DNA from: Lytechinus pictus
Taxonomy: Eukaryota
NCBI RefSeq assembly: GCF_037042905.1
Contig: NC_087250.1
Span: 12,030,001-12,094,000 of the forward strand
Direction: 5' to 3'
DNA: 64,000 nt
The notes beneath the pieces were generated by a model that saw only the letters and a program-made list of their open reading frames with translations, was not told the origin of the DNA and searched no databases. The translations under genes were made by a program, and so were the position numbers. This document shows, piece after piece, positions 23,685 to 57,236 of the stretch (positions within the stretch are counted from its first letter, which is position 1; every line of letters starts with the position of its first letter).

Positions 23685-24620
23685 GAAAGAACAGTGTGTT
23701 CACAGTGCGCTGTGAAATCCAATCCCATTCACAGTGTGGAACACCATGTGAAATCCCATTCACACTGTGTTAACAACATTTTGATAGTGTGATTCATATC
23801 CTTGAAAGAACAGTGCGTCCCACAGTGTGTTCACAGTGTGGAACACGATGTGAAATCCCATTCACAATGTGTTTACTAGTATATCATTTTAATAGTGTGA
23901 ATCATATCTTTGAAAGAGCAGTGTGTCTTACATTGTGTCCACAGTGTGGAACACAATGTAAAATCACATTCACACTGTTTACATCTTTTTAATAGTGTGA
24001 ATCATATAATTGAAAGAGCAGTGTGTCTTACAGTGTGTTCACAGTGTGGAACACGATGTGAAATCCCATTCACAATGTGTTTACTAGTATATCATTTTAA
24101 TAGTGTGAATCATATAATTGAAAGAGCAGTGTGTCTTACAGTGTGTTCACAGTGTGGAACACAATGTAAAATCACATTCACACTGTGTTTACATCATTTT
24201 AATAGTGAGAATCATATAATTGAAAGAGCAGTGTGTCTTACAGTGTGTTCACAGTGTGGAACATGATGTGAAATCCTATTCACACTGTGCATGTTAACAT
24301 CATTTTAGTATTGTGAATCTCATCCTTCAAAGAGCAGTGTACCCCACAGTGTGGAACACGATGTAAAATCCCATTCACAATGTGTTTACTAGTACATCAT
24401 TTTTGATAGTGTGAATCATATCCTTGAAGAACAGTGTATCACACAGTGTGGAACATGATATGAAATCACATTCACCATGTTCACACTGTGTTAACATCAT
24501 TTTAACAGACCACTATGTGACCAAAGGTGTGGACACCAGTACTGCCAGGCTGTCCACTCCACACTGTGAAAATTATCTTCACTGTGGTAGATATGAGCAT
24601 ATTTTAACAGTGTGAATCAC
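23685..24620. repeat. Minisatellite of ~110-120-bp units (ACAGTGTG/CACACTGT-rich)
   Basis: TTGAAAGAGCAGTGTGTCTTACAGTGTGTTCACAGTGTGGAACAC...TCACA repeated about 7-8 times. Confidence 0.9.
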
Positions 24621-40458: not shown

Positions 40459-40703
40459 ATGCAACATAGGGTACCCATCATCAGCCAGAGATTGCTCCGT
40501 GCCAGCATCCCATACTACTTCACCCAGGTCAGAGGTCACACCGAGGTCACACAAGCTCACCGACCGTGCTTGTTGAGTAGCCGAGGTTCACATTCTTGGA
40601 GGGCGTCCGACTTGTTTCTGACAAAGACTTGTTCCCGCTCTGCACCTGGTTTGGGCTGGACCCCTGTCTCTACTTTCAAGGAAGAAGCCACAGAGCAGCC
40701 CTG
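40459..40703 (+). CDS. FDPS: FDPS coding exon 1 (N-terminal extension, [16 protein letters not shown]...)
   Basis: Acceptor tttttcaaacAG ends at 40399, followed by gccATG at 40459. The donor TG|gtaagg (phase 2) joins the next exon in frame (W-YSSDM). Confidence 0.75.
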
Positions 40704-43700
40704 GTAAGGTCTTCTCTTAAAGGGGAAGTTCACCCTGATAAGAAACTTATAGCTAGTAAAAGCAGAAAAAAATATTCATTTATTTATTTATTTATTTATT
40801 TCGTTTTATACAGGGTAGCCCCATCAGTAGTCTTGTACTGTTTTCAAGGGGGCCCTGTAAACAAATATTTACAATATATATAACAGATAAACAAAGTACA
40901 TAAGGAAAAAATAAACAGAACATGAAAATAATCAGAAGTGAATGCATGGAAAAAAGATAATGGTACCGGTACATAAGACATTTAAGTACAATGTACGAAA
41001 GTAATGTTGATTCATTTAGATTTCAATCAGCATTACAATACAGGAAAAAGCAAACCCCTCCCCCTACATTTCAATTATTTAAATTCAGGTAAAGAGAGAA
41101 AAATATCATTAATAATTATATATTGATTATGTAATTTCCTTCAGGGGTGCACGATACGGTTTAGACCACAATGCCCCAAACCTCACGCCTTGGTTTGGAT
41201 TCGATCCCACGTCCCTCTGATTGAAAGACGAGTCGTAACCACTAGACCACAACGCCCCAAACTCCACGCCTTGGTTGGGATTCGAACCCATGTCCCTCTG
41301 ATTGAAAGACGTGTCGTAACCACTAGACCACAATGCCCCAAACATCACGCCTTGGTTGGGATTCGAACCCACGTCCCTCTGATTGAAAGACGAGTCGTAA
41401 CCACTAGACCACAACGCCCCAAACTCCACGCCTTGGTTGGGATTCGAACCCATGTCCCTCTGATTGAAAGACAAGAGTCGTAACCACTAGACCACAATGC
41501 CCCAAACCTCACGCCTTGGTTGGGATTTGAAGCCACATCCCTCTGATTGAAAGCCGAGTCGTAACCACTTGACCACAATGCCCCAAACCTAACGCCTTGG
41601 TTGGGATTCGAACCCAAGTCCCTCTGATTGAAAGACGAGTCGTAACCACTAGACCACAACGCCCCAAACTCAACGCCTTGGTTGGGATTCGAACCCACGT
41701 CCCTCTGATTGAAAGACAAGAGTCGTAACCACTAGACCACAACACCCCCTCCCCTCTCCCCCTCTGCCTCCCCCTTTAATACTTTAATATGTCTTAACTG
41801 TCTTATTTCACATTTGATGAAATTTTCAACATTATGGTTGTTGGGGTTTTCTCTATTGATTCAAATCACCATTTTTTGGGGGTAGACTTCACCTTTGACC
41901 ATCTGAAGTCCTCCTTATCTCCAATATTTGTTCAGGTACTCCTCGGACATGTCGTCAGCAACTCAAGATCCTCAAACCTTTGAGAAGGTCTTCTACGAAT
42001 TGGTGGACGAACTCACGGAAGATGACGCCGCTAATCCAGAGATCGCCGATGCAGCAGCTTGGTTCAAAGAGGTAAGACATCTCACCCCTTAACAGGGGGA
42101 AGGGAGGGGGGGTGGTTAATTTGAACCCACCACCTCGCACCTTTGACAAAGTGTGCAACTTCTCTGCCGTGCCAAATTTTGTGACTGCGTAGCTTGCAGA
42201 CTTTTTAAAAGTTTTTGCGCTCTATTTTAAGACAATTGTAAAAATCAGACACACCGTTACGATGTTGGAGGATTTTTTTTACATGTACATGCATGTCAAC
42301 CCCTAAATCCTTCAAAAAGGTTTTTTTTATACAAAATCAATTCATAATGGGTTCATTTTTTTTAAACCAAAAGTCAAACAAAAAAAATGTATGATTATTT
42401 TCACTTTGCTAAAGTGGCCCAGACAAGAATCATACGTAAGAAAGTACAAAATGTTGAAAAATGTGTCTGAGAAATTCACAAAACAATTAATCTTGGAGGA
42501 ATGAGAAACAGAGGCCTTGCTTCGGTGAATGTGTTCAGACAGTAGGCGAGCAACGTTGCGATCCTTTGATATCAGATGCAGGTTTGCAATGTACTGGGAG
42601 TGCAGGCGTATGGGTCTTAGACACCATTCTCATTATACTCTCTAAAACTAGACTTGAAATCGATTCAGGAAACCAGTTTGGAAGATCGCTTTGCTAGTGT
42701 TCCCGTTTGATCAGCCGAAAGTGGTTTTCAAAACCACTTCATGTAAAGTGGCCTTGTTGCTATGGGAATGCTCTCAGTAGGGATGACATGTTTCGTGCAA
42801 ATTTGAAACCGCAGCGTAGACATTCTATACACATTGTGTGGAGTAGCACGCTCTAAATGTGCGAAGATCGCTTCCCGGAGAACTGTTGTGTCCTCCCTTA
42901 TGCTAAAACCAGTTTAGCGAGGCAGAGCGATCTTGAAAAGTACTTAGGGTGGTGGTTTTCCGAACTGATTTGGAAGATCGCTTTCAAGACGGCTTTGACC
43001 GTTCTCATAACACGTTAAACTAGTTTCCACTATACTCGTTTTATGGTAATAATGAGAACAGGGTCTTATTGTTTTAAATGTGTTGAGAGGAGTTGGCTAG
43101 CAATGTTATGATTCTCTTTAGATGCTGGTTTGCCCGTAGTAAAGTCAGGCAGCTCTTTCTGTATCGAATGTGTTTAGATGGTCGGCTAACAACGTTATAA
43201 TTGCCTTACTATTCAGATACTGGTTTACAATGTATCGGGAATGGCAGAGCGGCGGAGCAGAGGATTATCTTTTGTGTTTGGGGGGACGTCTATTGTTGCG
43301 TCCCCCCCAAACACAAAAGATAATCCTCTGCTCCGCCGCCAATGGGGAATGGGTCTTTCTTTAGTGAATGTGTTCAGACAGCTAGCTAGCAACGGTGTTA
43401 TTCTTTTATTTCAGATGCTTGTTTACATTGTTCCAGGTTGAAAGAACGAAAAAGGTCCAAGTACTCTGATGAATGCGTTCAGACAGTTCACTAACAACCT
43501 TCTGCGTATCTTATTTATTTCAGATGCTGGTTTACAATGTTCCGGGAGGAAAGAGAAACCGAGGTCTTACTGTGGCGAATGCGTTCAGACAACTGGCAAA
43601 CAGCGTTCAAAGCACAGAAGATAACATTCATATAGCAATGGTTCTCGGCTGGTGTGTCGAATGGGTAAATTCTTATCAACAAAGAAATCATATCAGATAG

Positions 43701-46700
43701 AGGGGGGGGTCACAAAGTTTTAATTATGACCCACTTAAATGCAGATGCTTTATGATATGTAATGCGCAATCTTATTGATTAATAATCAGTAGTGCGCGTC
43801 CTCTTGGCATGATCTGACCAATGCAGTCGTGCCTTTTGCAATGCACGCAACTCGGCATTTACGTGCGAGTGCGACTCTAAGTCATACTTAAATATTTGTG
43901 AAGCACCCCCCTGGATCTAGTTGAATTTTAAAAATGTGCCACAGGATTCTGGGAGAAATTGTGTAATTGCTGAGAAATAAGCAAAATGAGAATGACATTT
44001 CACCTTATTGCCAGGTCTTTTTCCAACCAATAATGATACACCGTCCCACATGCGCTTATCTGTGATGGCGATCTCCATTGTGATCATTTTTCACAAAGTT
44101 CAATTTATGTATCTCCACCAGAGCTACATAGAGATCTAGCATAATGTAGTGACAATTAACTTTGACTTTACAGATTTTCTCATGAAATCAGTGTTTACTG
44201 GAACTACTTTCATTTATAATAAGTTCTTCATGTTTCTCCAACAATACCTCAAGGGTAATAACAGCAGTACTGCTGCGTGATGCCTGCGTATGAGAAAAAA
44301 ATCAGAGGCAGACTGCGTTATTTGAACCCACGACATCTGGATTACTAGACCAGTGTCATAACCACTAGACCACCGGAGTGCCCTTTCATTTATCTTTAAT
44401 ACTCATCCTGTTTTTCTCTTCATGTTTTCAGCTACAAGCCTACTTCCTAATAGCCGATGATATGATGGACCAATCAAAGACAAGGAGAGGTCAGCCTTGT
44501 TGGTATAAGAAGGTATGGAGAGACAGGATGGTGGTAGTGATGATGATTATGATGATGATGGTGACGGTGGTGGTGGTGATGAGGATGATGATGATGATGT
44601 TAATGGGGTTTATTATCTATTGGTCTGATACCACTTCGTCCAATTACCAACTCATCTACTACCATTTGGTCTACCATCATTTCGTCCACTGTCCTCATAT
44701 CTAATTGCCATTTCGACCACTCACCATTTCGTCTTATAACCATTTGGTCCAATTGCCATTTAGTCCATATACCATTTGGTCTAATTTGAAAAAGTGTTAA
44801 TAGGGCCAAATGAAAGAAAATTTAATGGATATTGGACCAAATGGTTATGAGACGAAATGATCATAGACGAACTGGTGATTAGACGAAGTGATGATTAGAC
44901 CAAATTGTTATGGACCAAATGGTTTTTAGACGAAGTGTTGATGGGCGGAATGACATTAGACTAAATTAAGTTAGACCACGTGGTGTGTAGATGAGTTCAC
45001 AATAGACGAATTGGCAATTTTACTGATAATGGAAGTGGTGGTGGTGATGATGATGGCGGTGATGTGTGGATGATGATGATGGTGGTGATGATGGTGATGA
45101 TGGTGATGATGATGATGGTGTGATGATGATGATGATGAGGAGGAGGAGGATGACGGTGGTGGTGGTGGTGGTGATGATGATAATATAGATTAGGATGATG
45201 ATGATGATGGCGATAAAAGCGTTAGTTTTGCAGATGCAGTTATTGGAGGACCTTTCACCAAGAACAGAGACAAATCCCCAATATTCTTACACCTCATTTA
45301 TACATTTCCATTCTTTTTGGTAGGATGGTGTGGGAACAGTTGCAATCAATGACTCATTCTACGTTGAAGCCTGCATCTACAAAATTCTCAAGAGATTCAT
45401 TAGTCATCAACCCTACTATGTCCAAGTGATGGAATTATTTCACGAGGTTTGTCAAGGTCTTTGTTGTATTTGCCATTAAAGCAGCAAAAAAAAAATGATT
45501 TCAATTAAAAAAATATGAAAAGGAATAGAATTCTAAGAACAATAGTGGTTTGAAATTGTCATATACTATTTCATTACCCATGTTCAGTTTCCCTTGGCCA
45601 TCTTGGATTTTGGGACGGCACTCTTTTTTCTCGAATCCAAGACCAAAAGTGTTGTCATTTCATTTTGAGATCGGGTAAAAGGACCAAATAAAAGCTGTTC
45701 CCAAAATGAAATAACGGGAAAAGCCATTTTGACAACCCTGAAGTCCACTCCAATTAAATAGGAAAATGAAATTTAAAAAATTACAAATATATGATTATAT
45801 TGCTAGTTTCACTGATTATTTTTATTTGATTTTCAGTGTGATACCACCATCACTTTGGCAGAAATTCACACAGGTAGTTTTGAAAACCGCCGGCTGAAGT
45901 GATGGTTGATAAAGATTTGCTGTATTAAACTTTGCTTGATTTTTTGTACATGAAAAAAGTCCTGGTTTTGTCACAGTGTGCCAAACTTACGCCTGTTGCC
46001 GTGGTTAAGCATGCTATTTTATTCATGAGTCCACTGTTTTGAGCAGTGGGCTCATTAATTCAAAACAATGGACTTGGGAATAAAATAGCGTACTCAACCA
46101 TGGCAACAGGCGTAAGTTTGCTGCCTCGTGACAACAGCATGCATCAGCATTGGACTTTGTTTATGTGGTATTGTAAGCATGATTTATACAGGAAATCTGC
46201 ATACCCCTTGGGTTCAACTCATTTAAAAAAATTCCTTTGAGAATTAGGGTCTTATGGGTAGAACTTGGCTGAAAGGTACCCTTCATTCATCGGCTGAATG
46301 TGACCTGCCTCTCCGAAACCAGCAACAAGTAGTCCAAAATGGTTTCGAGTATGTTTACTTATTTTTAAAAAGCACATCTTATTCTTAAGCCTTAAACGGA
46401 CACATGATCAGATGTGTATCCAGCATCAGATCCTAAAAAGCATTTCATGGGCCTAATTAGGAGACAATAATGACTATTATGCTTGCACATGGGCCCATAC
46501 ATGCTGGATACGCTAGTTCACGATTTCCCAAACTGATCAACAACTACCCACGTAGTTACGTTATTGAATGCAGAATAAATTCAGTGAAAGATTCAAAGAA
46601 TAAAGAGAAAACAGAGTTTCAAGTTTTGGCTTGAAGATAAACACCAGTTGTACGTGGTAACGATCTCAAAATGAGTTCGAATAGAGTCCAATAAAATGAC

Positions 46701-49700
46701 CACCCAAGACGTGTTTGTATGTATAAATTAAAAACATGTGCCAATTGACTCTGGAAAACAATGTGTAATTGCTGACAAATGGGCAAAATAAGCACGGAAT
46801 TCCATAATATGTCGGGTATTATTCCAAGCATTATTAATACACTGTCCCACATATGCGTTTCTGTGTTAGTGATCATTAGAATTATGATCGGTTTTCAGCT
46901 AATATTTCATGATTTCACAAAGGTAAGTTTATTTCAATGTAGCAGAACTAGTTCTATGACAATATGGTAGCATTAAACATGATTTGAAAAGCTTTTTCTT
47001 GAAATTATTATTTGCTGCAATTCTTTTCTTTTACCTTTAACTCAAGTATGAAATGTGCTATCTGTGCAATCTCCAATGATGATTATTGGTGCACTGGACG
47101 CACTGCAAATTAGAGTGAGCACTTTGATAAATTTGTCATGATTATTATTATTTGTTTTATCTTCTTTACGCTTGCAGACGACGTACCAGACGATCATGGG
47201 TCAAAGTTTAGATCTACTGACGTCTCCAGAAAATGACAGGGATCTCAACAGGTTCACGGAACAGAGGTAATTACAGGGTATCGGTGAACCACAAGGTCTG
47301 GGATTCAAATCTCAATGCAGTAATGGTGTCCATGGCAAAGTGTTTATATACAATTGACACTCTTCACCCAGGTGTTGTTGATGGGTTCCCAGTAGAAAGG
47401 ATTTATTTGAATGCTTGAGCACTGGATCAGGGTGGCTGTTCTAAAGCTGGGAGATTGTACGAAGCATGATATAGATGTTGCATATCATACTTGTTTAAGA
47501 GAGTTTGTTTAGGCTTGATATTTTACATAAATTGTAACTTTATATTTAGTTTTATGTCTACTGACTAGCTTTCATTACTTTATATTTTGTTTAATGTCGT
47601 TCTTTTCTATTGTTAATGATGTTTATAATACAATCTGATCTATTTTATTATGTTCTGGACCCCTAGGCAGAACAGAGTGGTAAAAATTACCACTCTGAAT
47701 GGGCAATCCAGCCATTCATATGTATTCATTTTATTTTGTAATTATATCTGATGTATTTTGTTTGTATTTTGCATGTTTTTATGAATGGAAAATAAATACA
47801 ATACAATAAAGTACGTTTTGAAATGGCATACATATTTTCTTCTATACATGAAAAAAAGAAAGAAGAAAATCCATATTTAATGTTCGAAATAGAAATATTC
47901 CGAAAATCAATTTTGCCCAGTTGATTGTGGACCCAGCAGCCACAGACTGTGCAGCGCCAGATTGACTAGGCTCTATCCCTTAAATGTTGAATGCCAAACA
48001 TGGTAGCAGCAACTCCAATCTTTTTACGTCTTTTGGTCTGACGCGGCTTGGGTGTGAACTCATGAGCTCTTCCAACTGAGCTAACACACCGGTCTGTACA
48101 TGTACATACAAACACCCTCAATGGTAATTTTATTGGATTCTATGGGAGATAGTCTTTAGATTGTTACAACAACTGGCATTTATACACTGTGCATATCCAT
48201 TCATTGCATATTTTCTCCTCTTTTTAACAGATATGCTGCAATAGTCAAATGGAAGACTGCTTTCTATTCCTTCTATCTGCCCGTTGCTCTAGCTATGCAT
48301 ATGGTGAGTTATGCAAGCCTTCTTTGAGAATTAAGTAAAATGAAATTTCATTTTAAAGGACAAGTCCACCCTATCAAAAAGTTGGTTTGAATAAATAAGA
48401 GAAAAAAAATCAAACAAGCATAACACTAAATATTTCATCGAATCGGATGTAAAATAAGAAAGTTATGACAATTTAAAGTTTTGGTTATTTTCACGAAACA
48501 ATTATATTCACATCCTGAAATGTGAGCATTGGTATTAAATGAAAAGCTTGCAGGATTCCCGAACGAAAGACACGGCTGAATTTTGACAAGGTGCTTTCAT
48601 CGATGTAAGTTTGAGGGAATCAACGTCATGCCAGGTATTGAATCCATAACTTATGTGTCTCTTGTCAGGTACATACTAATAGCATACTCACCATTTTACT
48701 ATGATACACATGATTTAAAGGATGTATTCAAATTGAGCATCAAAGTTTACATAAGATGAAGGCTATTTTTTTCTCTCGGTGTTATGAGGGTTGTAATGAA
48801 AACGTTTTTTATAAAAAAAACAAATAAAACGTTTTTTATTGTTTTAAAACGTTTTAAATCGTTTTAAAACTTCTTTTTTTCCAACGATCGATGTAATTTT
48901 CCTGTAAATCAATTAAATCATACACTTAATACAGTATGATTTGAGCTCTTGATGTTTGAAATACATTTTTGGAGTAAGTAAGAGATGACTACAATTTTTG
49001 TTACTGAATTTTCAACAGAAAAGTTCATATTTTTCCCCAAAAAACATGTTTTAAAACACACCGTTTAAAACGTGCCAACCCTGGTTATGTTGCTACCAAG
49101 TTATGTTCTTCTTTCAAATCAGGTCGGAATATCAGATGCCAAGTCTCACACCAATGCAAAGACAATCTTACTTCAGATGGGCCATTTCTTTCAAGTTCAG
49201 GTAAGTTACTCTTGTAAGTTCTTGTAATATTGATAGAGAAGCAGAGCGAACAAATGTAGCTGGTTAATTTTCTAGGTTCAAAAAGTGACCGCACACCTTT
49301 TGACAAAAGGGAAAAGTAAGAAAGAAAATTAGGAGATTGGTAACAGCACATTTGGGGGAGGGGGGTGTGGAAGACGGATTGTGAGGTCAGAGAATAAGGG
49401 GTAATGCAATTATATTAATAATAGCAGTATACTTACCCAGGATAGCCACTTCAGTTCCGAAACTTATTCTCCCAGCGGGCCCTGCTACATTATTATTATT
49501 ATTACCCCAGCTTTAGCTCGGCTGCGTAGGCGCTCAAGCTTTCAAGGAATTCCTTCCTACCGGGTACCCAATCGCCTCCCATGGGTTGAGTGCAGCACAA
49601 TGTGGGTGAATTTCTTGCTGGAGGAAACCACGCCATGGCTGGGATTTGAACCCACGTCCATCAGATTGAGAGACGAGTGTCGTAACCACTAGACCACAAC

Positions 49701-52700
49701 GCGCCCAGAGTTAAATAGAAAAGGGATAGAATTCAAAGCAGGGCAAAGATTTCATGGGGGCCGTGGGCGATTTAGTCCCCAAAATGCTCGACCGAGCCCT
49801 GGAAATACCCATTCATTGCAATGTTAAAGCTTACCCAGTGTTGCAGATGTAGGCTCCCAAAATTAAACAAAAATCGATTGAAATTATATGAAAAAAATTC
49901 CTTTCTGTCTTCCTCTTTTTTTTAGGATGACTATTTGGATTGTTACGGTGCTCAAGAGGTCATCGGTAAAATCGGGACGGACATAGAAGAGAATAAATGT
50001 GATCGGTTGGTTGTTCAGGCTCTGAAGGGTTACATCAGAATGAAGAAAGATTCCAATGAAAATATGAATAATTGCTTTCTTGTTTTTCTCTCTCTCTCTC
50101 TGTTTAGGATGACTATTTGGATTGTTACGGTGCTCAAGAGGTCATCGGTAAAATCGGGACGGACATAGAAGAGAGTAAATGTGATTGGTTGGTTGTCCAG
50201 GCTCTGAAGGGTTACCTCAGAATGAAGAAAGATTCCAATGAAAATATGAATAATTGCTTTCTTGTTTTTTTCTCTCTCTCTCTGTTTAGGATGACTATTT
50301 GGATTGTTACGGGGCTCCAGAGGTCATTGGTAAAATCGGGACGGACATAGAAGAGAATAAATGTGGTTGGCTGGTTGTTCAGGCTCTGAAGGGTTACATC
50401 AGAATGAAGAGAGAAAGATTCCAATAAAAATAGGAATAATTGCTTTCTTGTTTTTCTCTCTCTCTCTCTGTTAAGGATGACTATTTGGATTGTTACGGGG
50501 CTCCAGAGGTCATTGGTCAAATCAGGACGGACATAGAAGAGAATAAATGTGGTTGGTTGGTTGTTCAGGCTCTGAAGGGTTACATCAGAATGAAGAGAGA
50601 AAGATTCCAATGAAAATATGAATAATTGCTTTCTTGTTTTTCTCTCTCTCTCTCTGTTAAGGATGACTATTTGGATTGTTACGGGGCTCCAGAGGTCATT
50701 GGTCAAATCAGGACAGACATAGAAGAGAATAAATGTGGTTGGTTGGTTGTTCAGGCTCTGAAGGGTTACCTCAGAATGAAGAGAGAAAGATTCCAATGAA
50801 AATATGAATAATTGCTTTCTTGTTTTTCTCTCTCTCTCTCTGTTTAGGATGACTATTTGGATTGTTACGGGGCTCCAGAGGTCATCGGTAAAATCGGGAC
50901 GGACATAGAAGAGAGTAAATGTGATTGGTTGGTTGTTCAGGCTCTGAAGGGTTACATCAGAATGAAGAGAGAAAGATTCCAATGAAAATATGAATAATTG
51001 CTTTCTTGTTTTTCTCTCTCTCTCTCTGTTAAGGATGACTATTTGGATTGTTACGGGGCTCCAGAGGTCATTGGTAAAATCGGGACGGACATAGAAGAGA
51101 ATAAATGTGGTTGGCTGGTTGTTCAGGCTCTGAAGGGTTACATCAGAATGAAGAGAGAAAGATTCCAATGAAAATAGGAATAATTGCTTTCTTGTTTTTC
51201 TCTCTCTCTCTCTGTTAAGGATGACTATTTGGATTGTTACGGGGCTCCAGAGGTCATCGGTAAAATCGGGACGGACATAGAAGAGAGTAAATGTGGTTGG
51301 TTGGTTGTTCAGGCTCTGAAGGGTTACATCAGAATGAAGAGAGAAAGATTCCAATGAAAATAGGAATAATTGCTTTCTTGTTTTTCTCTCTCTCTCTCTG
51401 TTAAGGATGACTATTTGGATTGTTACGGGGCTCCAGAGGTCATTGGTCAAATCAGGACGGACATAGAAGAGAATAAATGTGGTTGGTTGGTTGTTCAGGC
51501 TCTGAAGGGTTACCTCAGAATGAAGAGAGAAAGATTCCAATGAAAATATGAATAATTGCTTTCTTGTTTTTCTCTCTCTCTCTCTGTTTAGGATGACTAT
51601 TTGGATTGTTACGGGGCTCCAGAGGTCATTGGTCAAATCAGGACAGACATAGAAGAGAATAAATGTGGTTAATTGGTTGGTTGTTCAGGCTCTGAAGGGT
51701 TACCTCAGAATGAAGAGAGAAAGATTCCAATGAAAATATGAATAATTGCTTTCTTGTTTTTCTCTCTCTCTCTCTGTTAAGGATGACTATTTGGATTGTT
51801 ACGGGGCTCCAGAGGTCATTGGTAAAATCGGGACGGACATAGAAGAGAGTAAATGTGATTGGTTGGTTGTTCAGGCTCTGAAGGGTTACATCAGAATGAA
51901 GAGAGAAAGATTCCAATGAAAATATGAATAATTGCTTTCTTGTTTTTCTCTCTCTCTCTCTGTTTAGGATGACTATTTGGATTGTTACGGGGCTCCAGAG
52001 GTCATCGGTAAAATCGGAACAGACATAGAAGAGAATAAATGTGATTGGTTGGTTGTCCAGGCTCTGAAGGGTTACATCAGAATGAAGAGAGAAAGATTCC
52101 AATGAAAATAGGAATAATTGCTTTCTTGTTTTTCTCTCTCTCTCTCTGTTAAGGATGACTATTTGGATTGTTACGGGGCTCCAGAGGTCATTGGTAAAAT
52201 CGGGACGGACATAGAAGAGAGTAAATGTGATTGGTTGGTTGTTCAGGCTCTGAAGGGTTACATCAGAATGAAGAGAGAAAGATTCCAATGAAAATATGAA
52301 TAATTGCTTTCTTGTTTTTCTCTCTCTCTCTCTGTTTAGGATGACTATTTGGATTGTTACGGGGCTCCAGAGGTCATTGGTCAAATCAGGACAGACATAG
52401 AAGAGAATAAATGTGGTTAATTGGTTGGTTGTTCAGGCTCTGAAGGGTTACCTCAGAATGAAGAGAGAAAGATTCCAATGAAAATATGAATAATTGCTTT
52501 CTTGTTTTTCTCTCTCTCTCTCTGTTTAGGATGACTATTTGGATTGTTACGGGGCTCCAGAGGTCATCGGTAAAATCGGGACGGACATAGAAGAGAGTAA
52601 ATGTGATTGGTTGGTTGTTCAGGCTCTGAAGGGTTACATCAGAATGAAGAGAGAAAGATTCCAATGAAAATATGAATAATTGCTTTCTTGTTTTTCTCTC

Positions 52701-55700
52701 TCTCTCTCTGTTAAGGATGACTATTTGGATTGTTACGGGGCTCCAGAGGTCATTGGTAAAATCGGGACGGACATAGAAGAGAATAAATGTGGTTGGCTGG
52801 TTGTTCAGGCTCTGAAGGGTTACATCAGAATGAAGAGAGAAAGATTCCAATGAAAATAGGAATAATTGCTTTCTTGTTTTTCTCTCTCTCTCTCTGTTAA
52901 GGATGACTATTTGGATTGTTACGGGGCTCCAGAGGTCATCGGTAAAATCGGGACGGACATAGAAGAGAGTAAATGTGGTTGGTTGGTTGTTCAGGCTCTG
53001 AAGGGTTACATCAGAATGAAGAGAGAAAGTTTCCAATGAAAATATGAATAATTGCTTTCTTGTTTTTCTCTCTCTCTCTCTGTTAAGGATGACTATTTGG
53101 ATTGTTACGGGGCTCCAGAGGTCATTGGTCAAATCAGGACGGACATAGAAGAGAATAAATGTGGTTGGTTGGTTGTTCAGGCTCTGAAGGGTTACCTCAG
53201 AATGAAGAGAGAAAGATTCCAATGAAAATATGAATAATTGCTTTCTTGTTTTTCTCTCTCTCTCTCTGTTTAGGATGACTATTTGGATTGTTACGGGGCT
53301 CCAGAGGTCATCGGTAAAATTGGGACGGACATAGAAGAGAGTATGATTGGTTGGTTGTTCAGGCTCTGAAGGGTTACATCAGAATGAAGAGAGAAAGATT
53401 CCAATGAAAATATGAATAATTGCTTTCTTGTTTTTCTCTCTCTCTCTCTGTTAAGGATGACTATTTGGATTGTTACGGGGCTCCAGAGGTCATTGGTTAA
53501 ATCGGGACGGACATAGAAGAGAGTAAATGTGATTGGTTGGTTGTTCAGGCTCTGAAGGGTTACATCAGAATGAAGAGAGAAAGATTCCAATGAAAATAGG
53601 AATAATTGCTTTCTTGTTTTTCTCTCTCTCTCTCTGTTAAGGATGACTATTTGGATTGTTACGGGGCTCCAGAGGTCATTGGTAAAATCGGGACGGACAT
53701 AGAAGAGAATAAATGTGGTTGGCTGGTTGTTCAGGCTCTGGAGGGTTACATCAGAATGAAGAGAGAAAGATTCCAATGAAAATAGGAATAATTGCTTTCT
53801 TGTTTTTCTCTCTCTCTCTCTGTTAAGGATGACTATTTGGATTGTTACGGGGCTCCAGAGGTCATCGGTAAAATCGGGACGGACATAGAAGAGAGTAAAT
53901 GTGGTTGGTTGGTTGTTCAGGCTCTGAAGGGTTACATCAGAATGAAGAGAGAAAGTTTCCAATGAAAATATGAATAATTGCTTTCTTGTTTTTCTCTCTC
54001 TCTCTCTGTTAAGGATGACTATTTGGATTGTTACGGGGCTCCAGAGGTCATTGGTCAAATCAGGACGGACATAGAAGAGAATAAATGTGGTTGGTTGGTT
54101 GTTCAGGCTCTGAAGGGTTACCTCAGAATGAAGAGAGAAAGATTCCAATGAAAATATGAATAATTGCTTTCTTGTTTTTCTCTCTCTCTCTCTGTTTAGG
54201 ATGACTATTTGGATTGTTACGGGGCTCCAGAGGTCATCGGTAAAATTGGGACGGACATAGAAGAGAGTATGATTGGTTGGTTGTTCAGGCTCTGAAGGGT
54301 TACATCAGAATGAAGAGAGAAAGATTCCAATGAAAATATGAATAATTGCTTTCTTGTTTTTCTCTCTCTCTCTCTGTTAAGGATGACTATTTGGATTGTT
54401 ACGGGGCTCCAGAGGTCATTGGTTAAATCGGGACGGACATAGAAGAGAGTAAATGTGATTGGTTGGTTGTTCAGGCTCTGAAGGGTTACATCAGAATGAA
54501 GAGAGAAAGATTCCAATGAAAATATGAATAATTGCTTTCTTGTTTTTCTCTCTCTCTCTCTGTTTAGGATGACTATTTGGATTGTTACGGGGCTCCAGAG
54601 GTCATCGGTAAAATCGGAACAGACATAGAAGAGAATAAATGTGATTGGTTGGTTGTCCAGGCTTTAAAGGGTTACCTCAGAATGAAGAGACAAAGATTCC
54701 AACGAAAATATAAATAATTTTTTTTCTCTCTCTCTCTGTTTAGGATGACTATTTGGATTGTTACGGTGCTCAAGAGGTCATCGGTAAAATCGGAACAGAC
54801 ATAGAAGAGAATAAATGTGGTCGGTTGGTTGTTCAGGCTCTGAAGGGTTACATCAGAATGAAGAGAGAAAGATTCCAATGAAAATATAAATAATTGTTTT
54901 TTTTTTCTCTCTCTCTGTTTAGGATGACTATTTGGATTGTTACGGGGCTCCAGAGGTCATCGGTAAAATCGGAACGGACATAGAGGAGAATAAATGCGGT
55001 TGGCTGGTTGTTCAGGCTCTGAAGGGTTACATCAGAATGAAGAGAGAAAGATTCCAATGAAAATATGAATAATTGCTTTCTTGTTTTTCTCTCTCTCTCT
55101 CTGTTAAGGATGACTATTTGGATTGTTACGGGGCTCCAGAGGTCATTGGTAAAATCGGGACGGACATAGAAGAGAATAAATGTGGTTGGCTGGTTGTTCA
55201 GGCTCTGAAGGGTTACATCAGAATGAAGAGAGAAAGATTCCAATGAAAATAGGAATAATTGCTTTCTTGTTTTTCTCTCTCTCTCTCTGTTAAGGATGAC
55301 TATTTGGATTGTTACGGGGCTCCAGAGGTCATCGGTAAAATCGGGACGGACATAGAAGAGAGTAAATGTGGTTGGTTGGTTGTTCAGGCTCTGAAGGGTT
55401 ACATCAGAATGAAGAGAGAAAGTTTCCAATGAAAATATGAATAATTGCTTTCTTGTTTTTCTCTCTCTCTCTCTGTTAAGGATGACTATTTGGATTGTTA
55501 CGGGGCTCCAGAGGTCATTGGTCAAATCAGGACGGACATAGAAGAGAATAAATGTGGTTGGTTGGTTGTTCAGGCTCTGAAGGGTTACCTCAGAATGAAG
55601 AGAGAAAGATTCCAATGAAAATATGAATAATTGCTTTCTTGTTTTTCTCTCTCTCTCTCTGTTTAGGATGACTATTTGGATTGTTACGGGGCTCCAGAGG

Positions 55701-56904
55701 TCATCGGTAAAATTGGGACGGACATAGAAGAGAGTATGATTGGTTGGTTGTTCAGGCTCTGAAGGGTTACATCAGAATGAAGAGAGAAAGATTCCAATGA
55801 AAATATGAATAATTGCTTTCTTGTTTTTCTCTCTCTCTCTCTGTTAAGGATGACTATTTGGATTGTTACGGGGCTCCAGAGGTCATTGGTTAAATCGGGA
55901 CGGACATAGAAGAGAGTAAATGTGATTGGTTGGTTGTTCAGGCTCTGAAGGGTTACATCAGAATGAAGAGAGAAAGATTCCAATGAAAATATGAATAATT
56001 GCTTTCTTGTTTTTCTCTCTCTCTCTCTGTTTAGGATGACTATTTGGATTGTTACGGGGCTCCAGAGGTCATCGGTAAAATCGGAACAGACATAGAAGAG
56101 AATAAATGTGATTGGTTGGTTGTCCAGGCTTTAAAGGGTTACCTCAGAATGAAGAGACAAAGATTCCAACGAAAATATAAATAATTTTTTTTCTCTCTCT
56201 CTCTGTTTAGGATGACTATTTGGATTGTTACGGTGCTCAAGAGGTCATCGGTAAAATCGGAACAGACATAGAAGAGAATAAATGTGGTCGGTTGGTTGTT
56301 CAGGCTCTGAAGGGTTACATCAGAATGAAGAGAGAAAGATTCCAATGAAAATATAAATAATTGTTTTTTTTTTCTCTCTCTCTGTTTAGGATGACTATTT
56401 GGATTGTTACGGGGCTCCAGAGGTCATCGGTAAAATCGGAACGGACATAGAGGAGAATAAATGCGGTTGGCTGGTTGTTCAGGCGCTGAAGAGGGTCACC
56501 CCGGAACAGAGAAGTATACTCGAGGTAAATATTCTTTGATTGAATTAAGTTTCAGATAACTAAAGCTCACTTTATTTCCTAATTTAAGGACTTTGCCCCC
56601 CCCCCCTTGCTCTCACTTGATGCTTGACGTTAATGAAGAGATCATCACGGAATCAGTTATGAAATACCTGTATGATATTTCTCTCCCTCTTTTTGTTTAT
56701 TAGGAAAACTATGGCATAGATGATGCCGAGAAGGTCGCGAAGGTGAAAGAACTCTACGCGACCCTTGACCTGGAGGGCGTTTATAGGTCGTATGAAGAAT
56801 CCAGCTATAATGATTTGATGGATACAATTAACAGCCACAGTGAAACGTTACCGAAAGATATATTTGTCGCTTTCGCCAAGAGGATTTATAAAAGGAATAA
56901 GTAA
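40459..56904 (+). CDS. FDPS: Farnesyl pyrophosphate synthase, spliced: join(40459-40703,41936-42071,43524-43664,44432-44512,45324-45446,47178-47266,48231-48303,49123-49200,56390-56524,56704-56904), 433 aa
   Basis: All introns are GT-AG with consistent phases, and the total of 1302 nt ends in TAA. The translation has [26 protein letters not shown] (FARM), [34 protein letters not shown] (SARM), [14 protein letters not shown] and C-terminal KRIYKRNK, collinear with animal FPPS. Confidence 0.95.
41162..41743 (-). repeat. Seven tandem 81-83-bp tRNA-like SINE heads in the FDPS intron after coding exon 1
   Basis: Unit TTTGGGGCGTTGTGGTCTAGTGGTTACGACTCGTCTTTCAATCAGAGGGACGTGGGTTCGAATCCCAACCAAGGCGTG with Pol III A and B boxes; matches the SINE heads at 49630-49702 and 60798-60875. 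Confidence 0.92.
41936..42071 (+). CDS. FDPS: FDPS exon 2 ([45 protein letters not shown])
   Basis: ttcAG acceptor and gag|gtaaga donor; matches the FPPS N-terminal helices; second ATG at 41949. Confidence 0.92.
42620..43065. mobile_element. PIF/Harbinger-like MITE inserted in a decayed exon-3 copy
   Basis: TTA|GACACCATTCTCATTAT...ATAATGAGAACAGGGTC|TTA; removing it restores exon-like sequence. Confidence 0.75.
43245..43344. mobile_element. 100-bp hairpin hAT-like MITE in a decayed exon-3 copy
   Basis: Near-perfect ~40-bp stem with a 10-nt loop; 8-bp TSD GGGAATGG (43237-43244, 43345-43352). Confidence 0.85.
43524..43664 (+). CDS. FDPS: FDPS exon 3 ([17 protein letters not shown]...GWCVEW)
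   Basis: tttcAG acceptor and tgg|gtaaat donor; 47 codons; GGKxxR motif. Confidence 0.95.
44432..44512 (+). CDS. FDPS: FDPS exon 4, first aspartate-rich motif ([27 protein letters not shown])
   Basis: ttttcAG acceptor and aag|gtatgg donor; DDxxD with aromatic Y/F at -5/-4, the chain-length signature of C15 FPPS. Confidence 0.96.
44525..45212. repeat. (GAT/GGT)n microsatellite interrupted by a foldback element (44610-45020)
   Basis: Direct reading. Confidence 0.85.
45324..45446 (+). CDS. FDPS: FDPS exon 5 ([25 protein letters not shown]...ELFHE)
   Basis: tAG acceptor and gag|gtttgt donor; AIND motif. Confidence 0.93.
47178..47266 (+). CDS. FDPS: FDPS exon 6 ([29 protein letters not shown])
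   Basis: tgcAG acceptor and ag|gtaatt donor; GQxxD motif. Confidence 0.94.
48231..48303 (+). CDS. FDPS: FDPS exon 7 ([24 protein letters not shown])
   Basis: taacAG acceptor and atg|gtgagt donor; KT motif. Confidence 0.95.
49123..49200 (+). CDS. FDPS: FDPS exon 8 ([26 protein letters not shown])
   Basis: atcAG acceptor and cag|gtaagt donor; FQxQ preceding the SARM. Confidence 0.95.
49490..49705 (-). mobile_element. tRNA-derived SINE
   Basis: Reverse complement of the SINE head and core seen at 17835. Confidence 0.82.
49870..56490 (+). repeat. Tandem array of ~186-bp units (35 truncated copies plus the real exon) of FDPS intron 8 acceptor and partial exon 9
   Basis: AG|GATGACTATTTGGATTG recurs 36 times from 49926 to 56390, with periods of 176-190 bp (mostly 186). 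Confidence 0.97.
56390..56524 (+). CDS. FDPS: FDPS exon 9, second aspartate-rich motif; the only complete copy ([45 protein letters not shown])
   Basis: Last unit of the tandem array; the only one continuing to [12 protein letters not shown] and a gag|gtaaat donor. Confidence 0.93.
56704..56904 (+). CDS. FDPS: FDPS terminal exon ([18 protein letters not shown]...KRIYKRNK*)
   Basis: ttAG acceptor, 66 codons plus TAA; basic FPPS C-terminus. Confidence 0.95.
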   Translation, partial: ENYGIDDAEKVAKVKELYATLDLEGVYRSYEESSYNDLMDTINSHSETLPKDIFVAFAKRIYKRNK

Positions 56905-57236
56905 ACTGTTTTTTTTATATATACATCAGTTGATTTTTGAAAGGAATAATTAAACTGTTTCGGGGATATATACATGTTCAGTCCATTTGTGCCCCAGAGA
57001 AAAAAAAATTCTACTAATCTTATTATTATTTTTTGTAATCTATGTGTACAGATTACAGCTTTCCTAATATTCTGTATATATACAGATTGGTATATAAATC
57101 GTAATTTGTCTCATAATATATTCTTTGTACAGATTGCAGTAATCTGTAGAAACTTGTAATCTGCATGTAGAGATTAGGTGAAGTACCACAATCTATTTCG
57201 ATTATTATAAAAGCTGTAATTTCTATACTCGGATCA

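Follow-up and report, generated by a model that had tools for sequence, protein, structure and literature searches.

Exon duplication in tandem, of the Dscam type, gives mutually exclusive exons, and the decoy exons of SF3B1 and OGT reportedly promote intron retention, for which they need both a 3′ and a 5′ splice site. Nearer to the arrangement described here is the 37-bp variable number of tandem repeats (VNTR) in intron 7 (IVS7) of human F7, whose first element spans the exon 7–intron boundary and is followed by identical pseudo-donors that are silent, an outcome for which 5′-to-3′ scanning, with use of the first donor met, has been proposed (Borensztajn et al. 2006, PMC1557585). We analysed a stretch of 64,000 nucleotides from Lytechinus pictus (NC_087250.1, positions 12,030,001 to 12,094,000 of the forward strand, assembly GCF_037042905.1; hereafter the window, with position 1 as its first letter), in which intron 8 of the farnesyl pyrophosphate synthase (FPPS) gene FDPS carries 35 incomplete copies of exon 9, each with an acceptor AG, in front of the real exon. 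By analogy the array can be regarded as an acceptor-side (3′) mirror of the human F7 IVS7 VNTR, as in both cases the terminal unit straddles an exon–intron boundary and pseudo-sites that are nearly identical to the authentic splice site lie in a row beside it. We consider the array to be, most probably, an intronic minisatellite that derives from an exon, ends with the functional exon as its last repeat and is tolerated by its host gene.

One array, at 49924-56491, was detected by Tandem Repeats Finder, with a period of 186, 35.6 copies and 95% matches. The 17-mer made up of AG followed by GATGACTATTTGGAT has 36 occurrences free of mismatches, where 0.02 would be expected, and 0/100 shuffles reach 36. 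The first 35 occurrences mark decoy units (49926..56389, + strand) that lie head-to-tail in intron 8 upstream of unit 36, each consisting of exon 9 from +1 to +102, a tail remnant of ~30 nt without a donor and ~55 nt of the end of intron 8; their lengths of 176, 179, 182, 186 and 190 bp follow an ordered pattern, and their number is that of the assembly alone. Unit 36 is the real exon 9 (56390..56524, + strand; 135 nt, 45 codons, phase 0-0), which has DDYLD at its start and is bounded by a TAG acceptor and the donor GAG/gtaaat. All 35 decoys lack the 3′ end of exon 9. The start of the spacer (~30 nt) aligns with the last 33 nt of the real exon plus its donor at a score of 8, compared with 3.55 ± 1.6 for shuffled sequence (reached in 35/2000), and in this alignment the real donor GT stands opposite GA in the decoys. 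The last ~54 nt of the spacer align with the intron end before unit 1 at a score of 12, compared with 4.36 ± 1.96 (reached in 9/2000). Donor-like GT sites within the decoys score at best 6/9 versus 7/9 for the real donor, with none at the homologous place and with a non-consensus +3 or +5 in the best of them. The decoy acceptors read TAG in 16/35 and AAG in 19/35, differing at position -3, and those inspected have 20/21 pyrimidines upstream, so that the 16 TAG decoys are like the real site.

Much of this had been proposed in an initial annotation of the window, and its structural claims largely stand. The 36 unit starts it gave (49926, 50108, 50290, 50476 ... 56211, 56390) are each the first exon-like base of a unit, unit 36 is the only complete one and alone reaches the exon end and the donor after 56524, no decoy has a donor homologous to that of the exon, and the exon 8 donor is found at 49200 as stated. 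Its view of the array as partial copies of the DDxxD exon of FDPS is upheld by matches to avian FPPS (1fps) and to PF00348. Other statements need qualification: a (CT)n tract, ascribed to each unit, is present in general and gives way in unit 1 to an old T-rich tract; the acceptor AG is indeed found in each unit, in the two forms given above; and the 34 codons of exon 9 and the 15-residue tail described for the decoys are retained exactly in a part of them, as detailed below.

The host gene comprises ten coding exons on the + strand from ~40459 to 56903, as delimited by tblastn with the Lytechinus variegatus 'farnesyl pyrophosphate synthase-like' protein P0001 (434 aa). The last of these (exon 10, 56704..56903, + strand, stop codon at 56901-56903) is 98% identical to P0001 and 95% identical to Strongylocentrotus purpuratus P0002; the N-terminal exon reaches no more than 85% identity to P0001, so that the window comes from a close relative of L. 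variegatus and not from the record of P0001 itself. Exon 8 (49123..49200, + strand; 78 nt, phase 0-0), placed by tblastn with P0001 together with splice-site reading, ends in the donor CAG/gtaagt at 49200/49201. It is followed by the unique 5′ part of intron 8 (49201..49925, + strand, read from the sequence), which precedes decoy unit 1, and exon 9 is separated from exon 10 by intron 9 (56525..56703, + strand; 179 nt, GT..AG). From DDYLD on, exon 9 aligns with residues 238-282 of avian FPPS (1fps_A, E 1.6e-18), and this DDYLD is the catalytic second aspartate-rich motif of FPPS. P0001 matches the Pfam polyprenyl synthetase family PF00348 at 1.2e-82, and the 45-aa reading of one decoy matches profile positions 186-220 of the same family at 1.5e-11.

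Over their first 102 nt the decoys are ~95-97% identical to the real exon, with ~3-6 differences in the 36-unit alignment, and most units translate as DDYLDCYG...QALK, after which units 1-35 continue with GY(I/L)RMK... and run into a stop. The 34-codon part is identical to that of the real exon in 5/35 decoys, carries missense changes only in 22/35 and contains a stop or frameshift in 8/35, and the same exact 15-residue tail is read in 18/35. The real exon differs from the decoy consensus at six positions (+39, +51, +63, +75, +82 and +96), and 6/6 of these differences are synonymous. As the real exon's differences are all synonymous while the decoys carry stops, frameshifts and missense changes, the real exon is constrained at the protein level and the decoys are not.

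To follow the array at the RNA level we used public data comprising two of three sets of reads from ribosomal RNA (rRNA)-depleted RNA (X21 and X22) and four contigs of one set (X1), all under one organism label (A), together with contigs (X10) under a second label (B). Reads and contigs were aligned to 56313-57212 at 85% likeness, with 56313-56390 masked as repeat, so that the spacer and the acceptor were excluded. In X21 the depth is 44.4, 48.1 and 54.6 over the shared part of exon 9, 50.5 over the part private to the real exon and 46.8-57.4 where exon 10 begins; X22 gives a similar picture, and the interior of intron 9 has a depth of 0. The exon 9-10 joint, at which 179 nt are skipped, is crossed by 31 and 30 reads in X21 and X22, respectively, and is also found in an X1 contig of 1079 nt, which extends 712 nt further upstream and holds one exon-9-like piece only. 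FDPS RNA from the + strand, correctly spliced from exon 9 to exon 10, is thus present at a depth of ~45-57. At 56440 (+51), where the real exon has A and 29/35 decoys have G, G is found in 0/45 and 0/51 reads, or 0/96 in total, and at 56428 (+39) the decoy-consensus T is found in 0/44 and 0/57 reads. Because none of the 96 reads has G even though 29 units per array carry it, array-containing RNA would amount to less than roughly 0.1% of messenger RNA (mRNA), if the arrays of those animals are alike. The decoys are undetectable in steady-state RNA.

The contigs under label B give a view of DNA from a second source. Two of them run from the shared part of exon 9 through the real tail into intron 9, and since they continue into the intron the X10 data are genomic. 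A further X10 contig of 249 nt contains an exon-like piece that ends at +102, 84 unaligned letters and the start of the next exon-like piece; at least one decoy with the same 102 + 84 layout is therefore present under organism label B. The depths of the X10 contigs give no copy number.

Some further differences were seen in the RNA reads. At 56506 they have C (49/49 and 45/45) where the window has A, a Glu to Asp change in ...TPEQR; the proteins of both L. variegatus and S. purpuratus have TPDQR at this site, and as the reads and both relatives agree on Asp, the allele of the window is the unusual one. In X22, a loose end at 56705, which is 3 nt inside exon 10, is shown by 4 reads whose exon 9 end also differs slightly, and at 56521 the reads with C>T (7/13 and 2/13) carry many other differences. 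A paralogue, a divergent allele or wobble of the alignment around the junction could account for such reads.

The higher-order structure of the array extends into the real exon. Two copies of a 1418-bp block lie at a lag of 1467 bp and differ by 1 mismatch (at 53741): copy A (53600..55017, + strand) starts at the end of unit 20 and takes in the first 95 nt of unit 28, and copy B (55067..56484, + strand) ends inside the real exon, the first mismatch being 56485 (exon +96), a position at which every ungapped decoy has T and the real exon G. Between units 22-27 and units 30-35 there are 0 differences, a single letter distinguishes unit 21 from unit 29, and the mean number of differences between units falls to 7.19 at a lag of 8, compared with 9-11 at most lags. 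Unit 28 (54923..55108, + strand) corresponds, within the upstream block, to the real exon and is a hybrid in which the first 82+ nt have the private synonymous letters of the real exon (+39C, +51A, +63G, +75C and +82C) and the tail is of the decoy type. In the simplest account, the real exon and unit 20 would recently have undergone a single unequal exchange in register, the crossover lying probably between +82 and +96, and two point changes would have followed. As the right edge of block copy B falls inside the exon, between +82 and +96, the functional exon itself is the terminal repeat of the array and a participant in unequal exchange.

The distribution of differences along the array fits such a process. 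The edge units 1 and 2 are the most divergent of the 182- and 186-bp units and differ from the other decoys at 9-27 alignment columns, while many interior pairs differ at 0-7, the pattern to be expected of an array whose interior units are made alike by exchange. Likewise, the first 102 nt of the decoys are near the real exon and their tails are not because the real tail lies outside the array and cannot be copied inward by in-register exchange. The real exon also varies among other individuals, with T and G at +39 and +51 in the X1 contig and A and A at +54 and +63 in X21 and X22; these letters, all of them synonymous, are the same as those that vary among the decoys of the window (+39, +51, +54 and +63). 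These common variants would fit a continuing exchange between exon and array, and they could also be shared ancestral polymorphism.

A second, older stack precedes exon 3 of the same gene (43524-43664, + strand). Here, in 42576-43523, four degenerate partial copies of the exon start at 42576, 43122, 43217 and 43415, are 72-78% identical to it and each have their own YAG acceptor; the motif AGATRCNNGTTTRC occurs 5 times in the window versus 0.00 expected, and the copy nearest to exon 3 reads into a stop. Stacks of decoy acceptors thus arose at least twice in FDPS, one of them having since decayed, and because of this decayed stack we prefer neutral birth and decay to a tuned device.

Taken as a tolerated minisatellite, the array would have begun with a tandem duplication of ~186 bp that comprised the last ~55 nt of intron 8 and most or all of exon 9. 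The upstream copy would have kept the old acceptor and lost its usable 3′ end and donor, leaving the real exon with the repeat spacer and its (CT)n tract ahead of it; a tandem duplication has a geometry that would leave the old acceptor in front of decoy unit 1, and the presumed ancestral acceptor region is found there (49870-49925, + strand, with a T-rich tract and TAG at 49923-49925). In-register unequal exchange may then have expanded the array to 35 copies, and it would still take in the first ~100 nt of the real exon, holding the likeness at ~95-97% while the decoy tails drift. At the level of splicing, exon 8 would be joined to the last acceptor because only there is a donor found within 135 nt, as would follow from the exon definition model of splice-site pairing. 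We regard exon definition as a plausible cause of decoy skipping, and the weak AAG acceptor of 19/35 decoys may help. Unit 35, the nearest TAG decoy at 314 nt from the real donor, would be the likeliest to leak. We infer both neutrality and the order of events, and in our view the array most probably has no function and is tolerated by selection. It may even be a hazard, as stops, frameshifts and missense variants adjoin a catalytic exon that recombines with the array.

Several points weigh against this reading. The real exon's +39C and +51A are also present in units 34 and 35, the decoys nearest to it, whose use is bounded by the flat depth, at roughly 10-15%. Nonsense-mediated decay (NMD) could hide transcripts that use a decoy, and the exon 8-exon 9 joint lies in the masked 56313-56390 and so is not seen directly. 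The table of read letters covers part of the positions, and silence at 56464, 56471 and 56485 is no proof. The animals that gave the RNA differ from the window at several sites, with A in all reads at 56443 and 56452, C at 56506, and C at 56488 in 15/50 and 10/47 reads, and they may differ in their arrays as well. Variation among the decoys falls on 8 synonymous versus 8 nonsynonymous sites, a larger synonymous share than would be predicted from neutral drift by itself, an excess that we attribute, short of proof, to import from real-exon alleles. Finally, absence of function is not something that can be shown from sequence.

Among the alternatives, an assembly artefact or inflated copy number, with a real array that is far shorter and a mis-assembled 1.4-kb block, is improbable. 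In its favour, the two copies of the 8-unit block differ by 1 mismatch in 1418 bp, the copy number comes from the assembly alone, and the decoy contig under label B has a depth of 41.5, like that of single-copy contigs; against it, the structured nested variants, the five unit lengths in order and the divergent edges are as in natural arrays, and an independent short contig under label B has the same junction of 102 nt + 84 nt.

There is likewise little chance that the array is a copy-number-variable cis-element that sets FDPS output, for instance because it delays the splicing out of intron 8, sequesters 3′ splice-site factors or brings about early cleavage at the 20 sites that combine AATAAA with a GU-rich run, and that also acts as a recombination partner feeding variants into the catalytic exon. 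If this were true, array length and content would differ among individuals and species, with effects on mevalonate-pathway flux.

The regulatory form of this idea, which the initial annotation had put forward as a copy-number-tunable rheostat, is very unlikely. It holds that the 35 acceptors titrate or delay splicing or divert it to truncated or NMD-targeted transcripts, so that copy number tunes FDPS, and it can draw on the 16 decoys with a real-like acceptor (20/21 pyrimidines and TAG), on the at least one decoy-to-next-unit junction in the DNA under label B, by which the structure is not brand new, and on intron-retaining decoy elements, which are known from the literature. It finds no support in the RNA, however, given 0/96 decoy letters at +51 in the rRNA-depleted reads (less than ~0.1% array RNA, with the same proviso on the arrays), the flat depth and the clean intron 9; moreover, free drift of the decoys is evident from their stops, their frameshifts and the 19 AAG acceptors, an equivalent stack before exon 3 has decayed, and published decoy exons need both splice sites while the array units have no donor. 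The RNA data and the decayed exon 3 stack instead favour the fallback that the same annotation had offered, a tolerated exon-derived satellite.

Of the 22 AATAAA hexamers in 49926-56524 (49992 ... 56456), 20 lie in decoys at +66, the real exon and a spacer contain one apiece, and a G/T-rich TGTGGTTGGTTGGTTGTT-like run follows in every case; 12 further decoys have AGTAAA at the +66 site and 3 have a deletion there. The +66 hexamer resembles a poly(A) signal and is coding sequence that is read through in the real exon. That the 20 decoy hexamers and their G/T-rich runs form an intronic polyadenylation trap, ending transcripts early and attenuating the gene, deserves hardly any credence despite the abundance of such sites, as the real exon with the same hexamer and run is read through, the 96 reads hold no decoy letters, and no molecule ends are reported in 56313-57212, a region that covers the last unit only.

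Four further candidates were rejected. An RNA-structure silencer is not favoured, as the predicted pairing between the purine run of the spacer and the pyrimidine tract is equal before decoys and before the real exon and no better than in shuffled sequence (z -0.71, -0.36 and +0.70). Recursive splicing would require AG/GTAAGT, and the units begin AG/GATGAC. Mutually exclusive exons are opposed by copies that are incomplete, have stop-ended tails, include 8 with a stop or frameshift and were not seen in RNA. Intron retention driven by decoy exons is opposed by the lack of a donor in the units and by the 0/96 decoy letters, which come from one tissue or stage set of other individuals. A protein search with the decoy reading gave 30 matches, and the 14/30 examined were all single-exon FPPS fragments from other eukaryotes with the normal tail; such a search is uninformative on the array in other species.

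Other repeats are found in and around the gene. Intron 8 contains a stretch at ~49540-49700 that resembles a short interspersed nuclear element (SINE) derived from transfer RNA (tRNA). It is related to an array in intron 1 (41162-41748) of 7.2 tandem copies of an 81-nt tRNA-like unit with 91% matches, a third tandem amplification in FDPS, within which a minus-strand tRNA-Leu(caa) is called at 41593-41662. Intron 4 has long trinucleotide-type simple repeats at 44509-45220, directly downstream of the exon with the first aspartate-rich motif; these are ATG/ATC-rich and read as poly-His, poly-Asp or poly-Met depending on the frame. An unrelated tandem repeat lies at 23728-24487, with a period of ~108 or 208, 7 or 2.9 copies and 80-89% matches.

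The array offers a natural experiment in splice-site choice, as a strong donor is separated from the authentic acceptor of an essential exon by 35 other acceptors, of which 16 equal the authentic one on paper, and the RNA looks clean. The F7 IVS7 donor array has served to dissect 5′ site selection, and the FDPS array is a potential natural model for the choice of the 3′ site. It also presents an essential coding exon as the terminal unit of a recombining minisatellite, with the crossover mapped inside it, and thereby a concrete route by which defective copies may damage a gene or shuffle synonymous variation into an exon. Even if the array is merely tolerated, it matters for annotation, as its 36 near-identical units will lead gene finders and short-read aligners to assign reads and junctions to the wrong unit. 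Our literature search returned no description of the FDPS array, of exon-derived acceptor arrays or of an acceptor-side equivalent of F7, which is not proof of their absence.

Compared with F7 IVS7, the site used is in both cases the one attached to the exon body, and the silence of the F7 pseudo-sites may have its counterpart in the FDPS decoys, to which the 0/96 decoy letters, the flat depth and the X1 contig with its one exon-9-like piece lend indirect support. The two arrays differ in that F7 has 5′ donors downstream of its exon, in few copies of 37 bp, whereas FDPS has 3′ acceptors upstream, in 35 copies of 186 bp that include 102 nt of coding sequence with the catalytic motif and show higher-order structure; moreover, the first-donor scanning proposed for F7 cannot explain the choice of the last acceptor in FDPS. 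The decoy exons of SF3B1 and OGT are likewise intronic splice-site-like elements that are not included in mRNA, but they cause measurable retention, while the FDPS units have no donor and no array-derived reads were seen. With tandem duplications of the Dscam type the array shares head-to-tail exon copies that each have their own acceptor, yet the FDPS copies are truncated, donorless, stop-ended, in 8/35 cases frameshifted or nonsense, and unseen in mRNA. Gene/pseudogene pairs such as CYP21A2/CYP21A1P exchange sequence by conversion, and there too defective copies adjoin a functional sequence and share variants with it; in FDPS the exchange would take place at the scale of an exon fragment, within one intron and with 35 donor copies. 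Finally, satellites with higher-order repeats and minisatellites evolve by unequal crossing-over, and the near-perfect duplication of a multi-unit block, the homogenised interior and the divergent edges of the FDPS array are all in keeping with this, the difference being that in FDPS the edge unit is a constrained, essential coding exon with the likely crossover point inside it.

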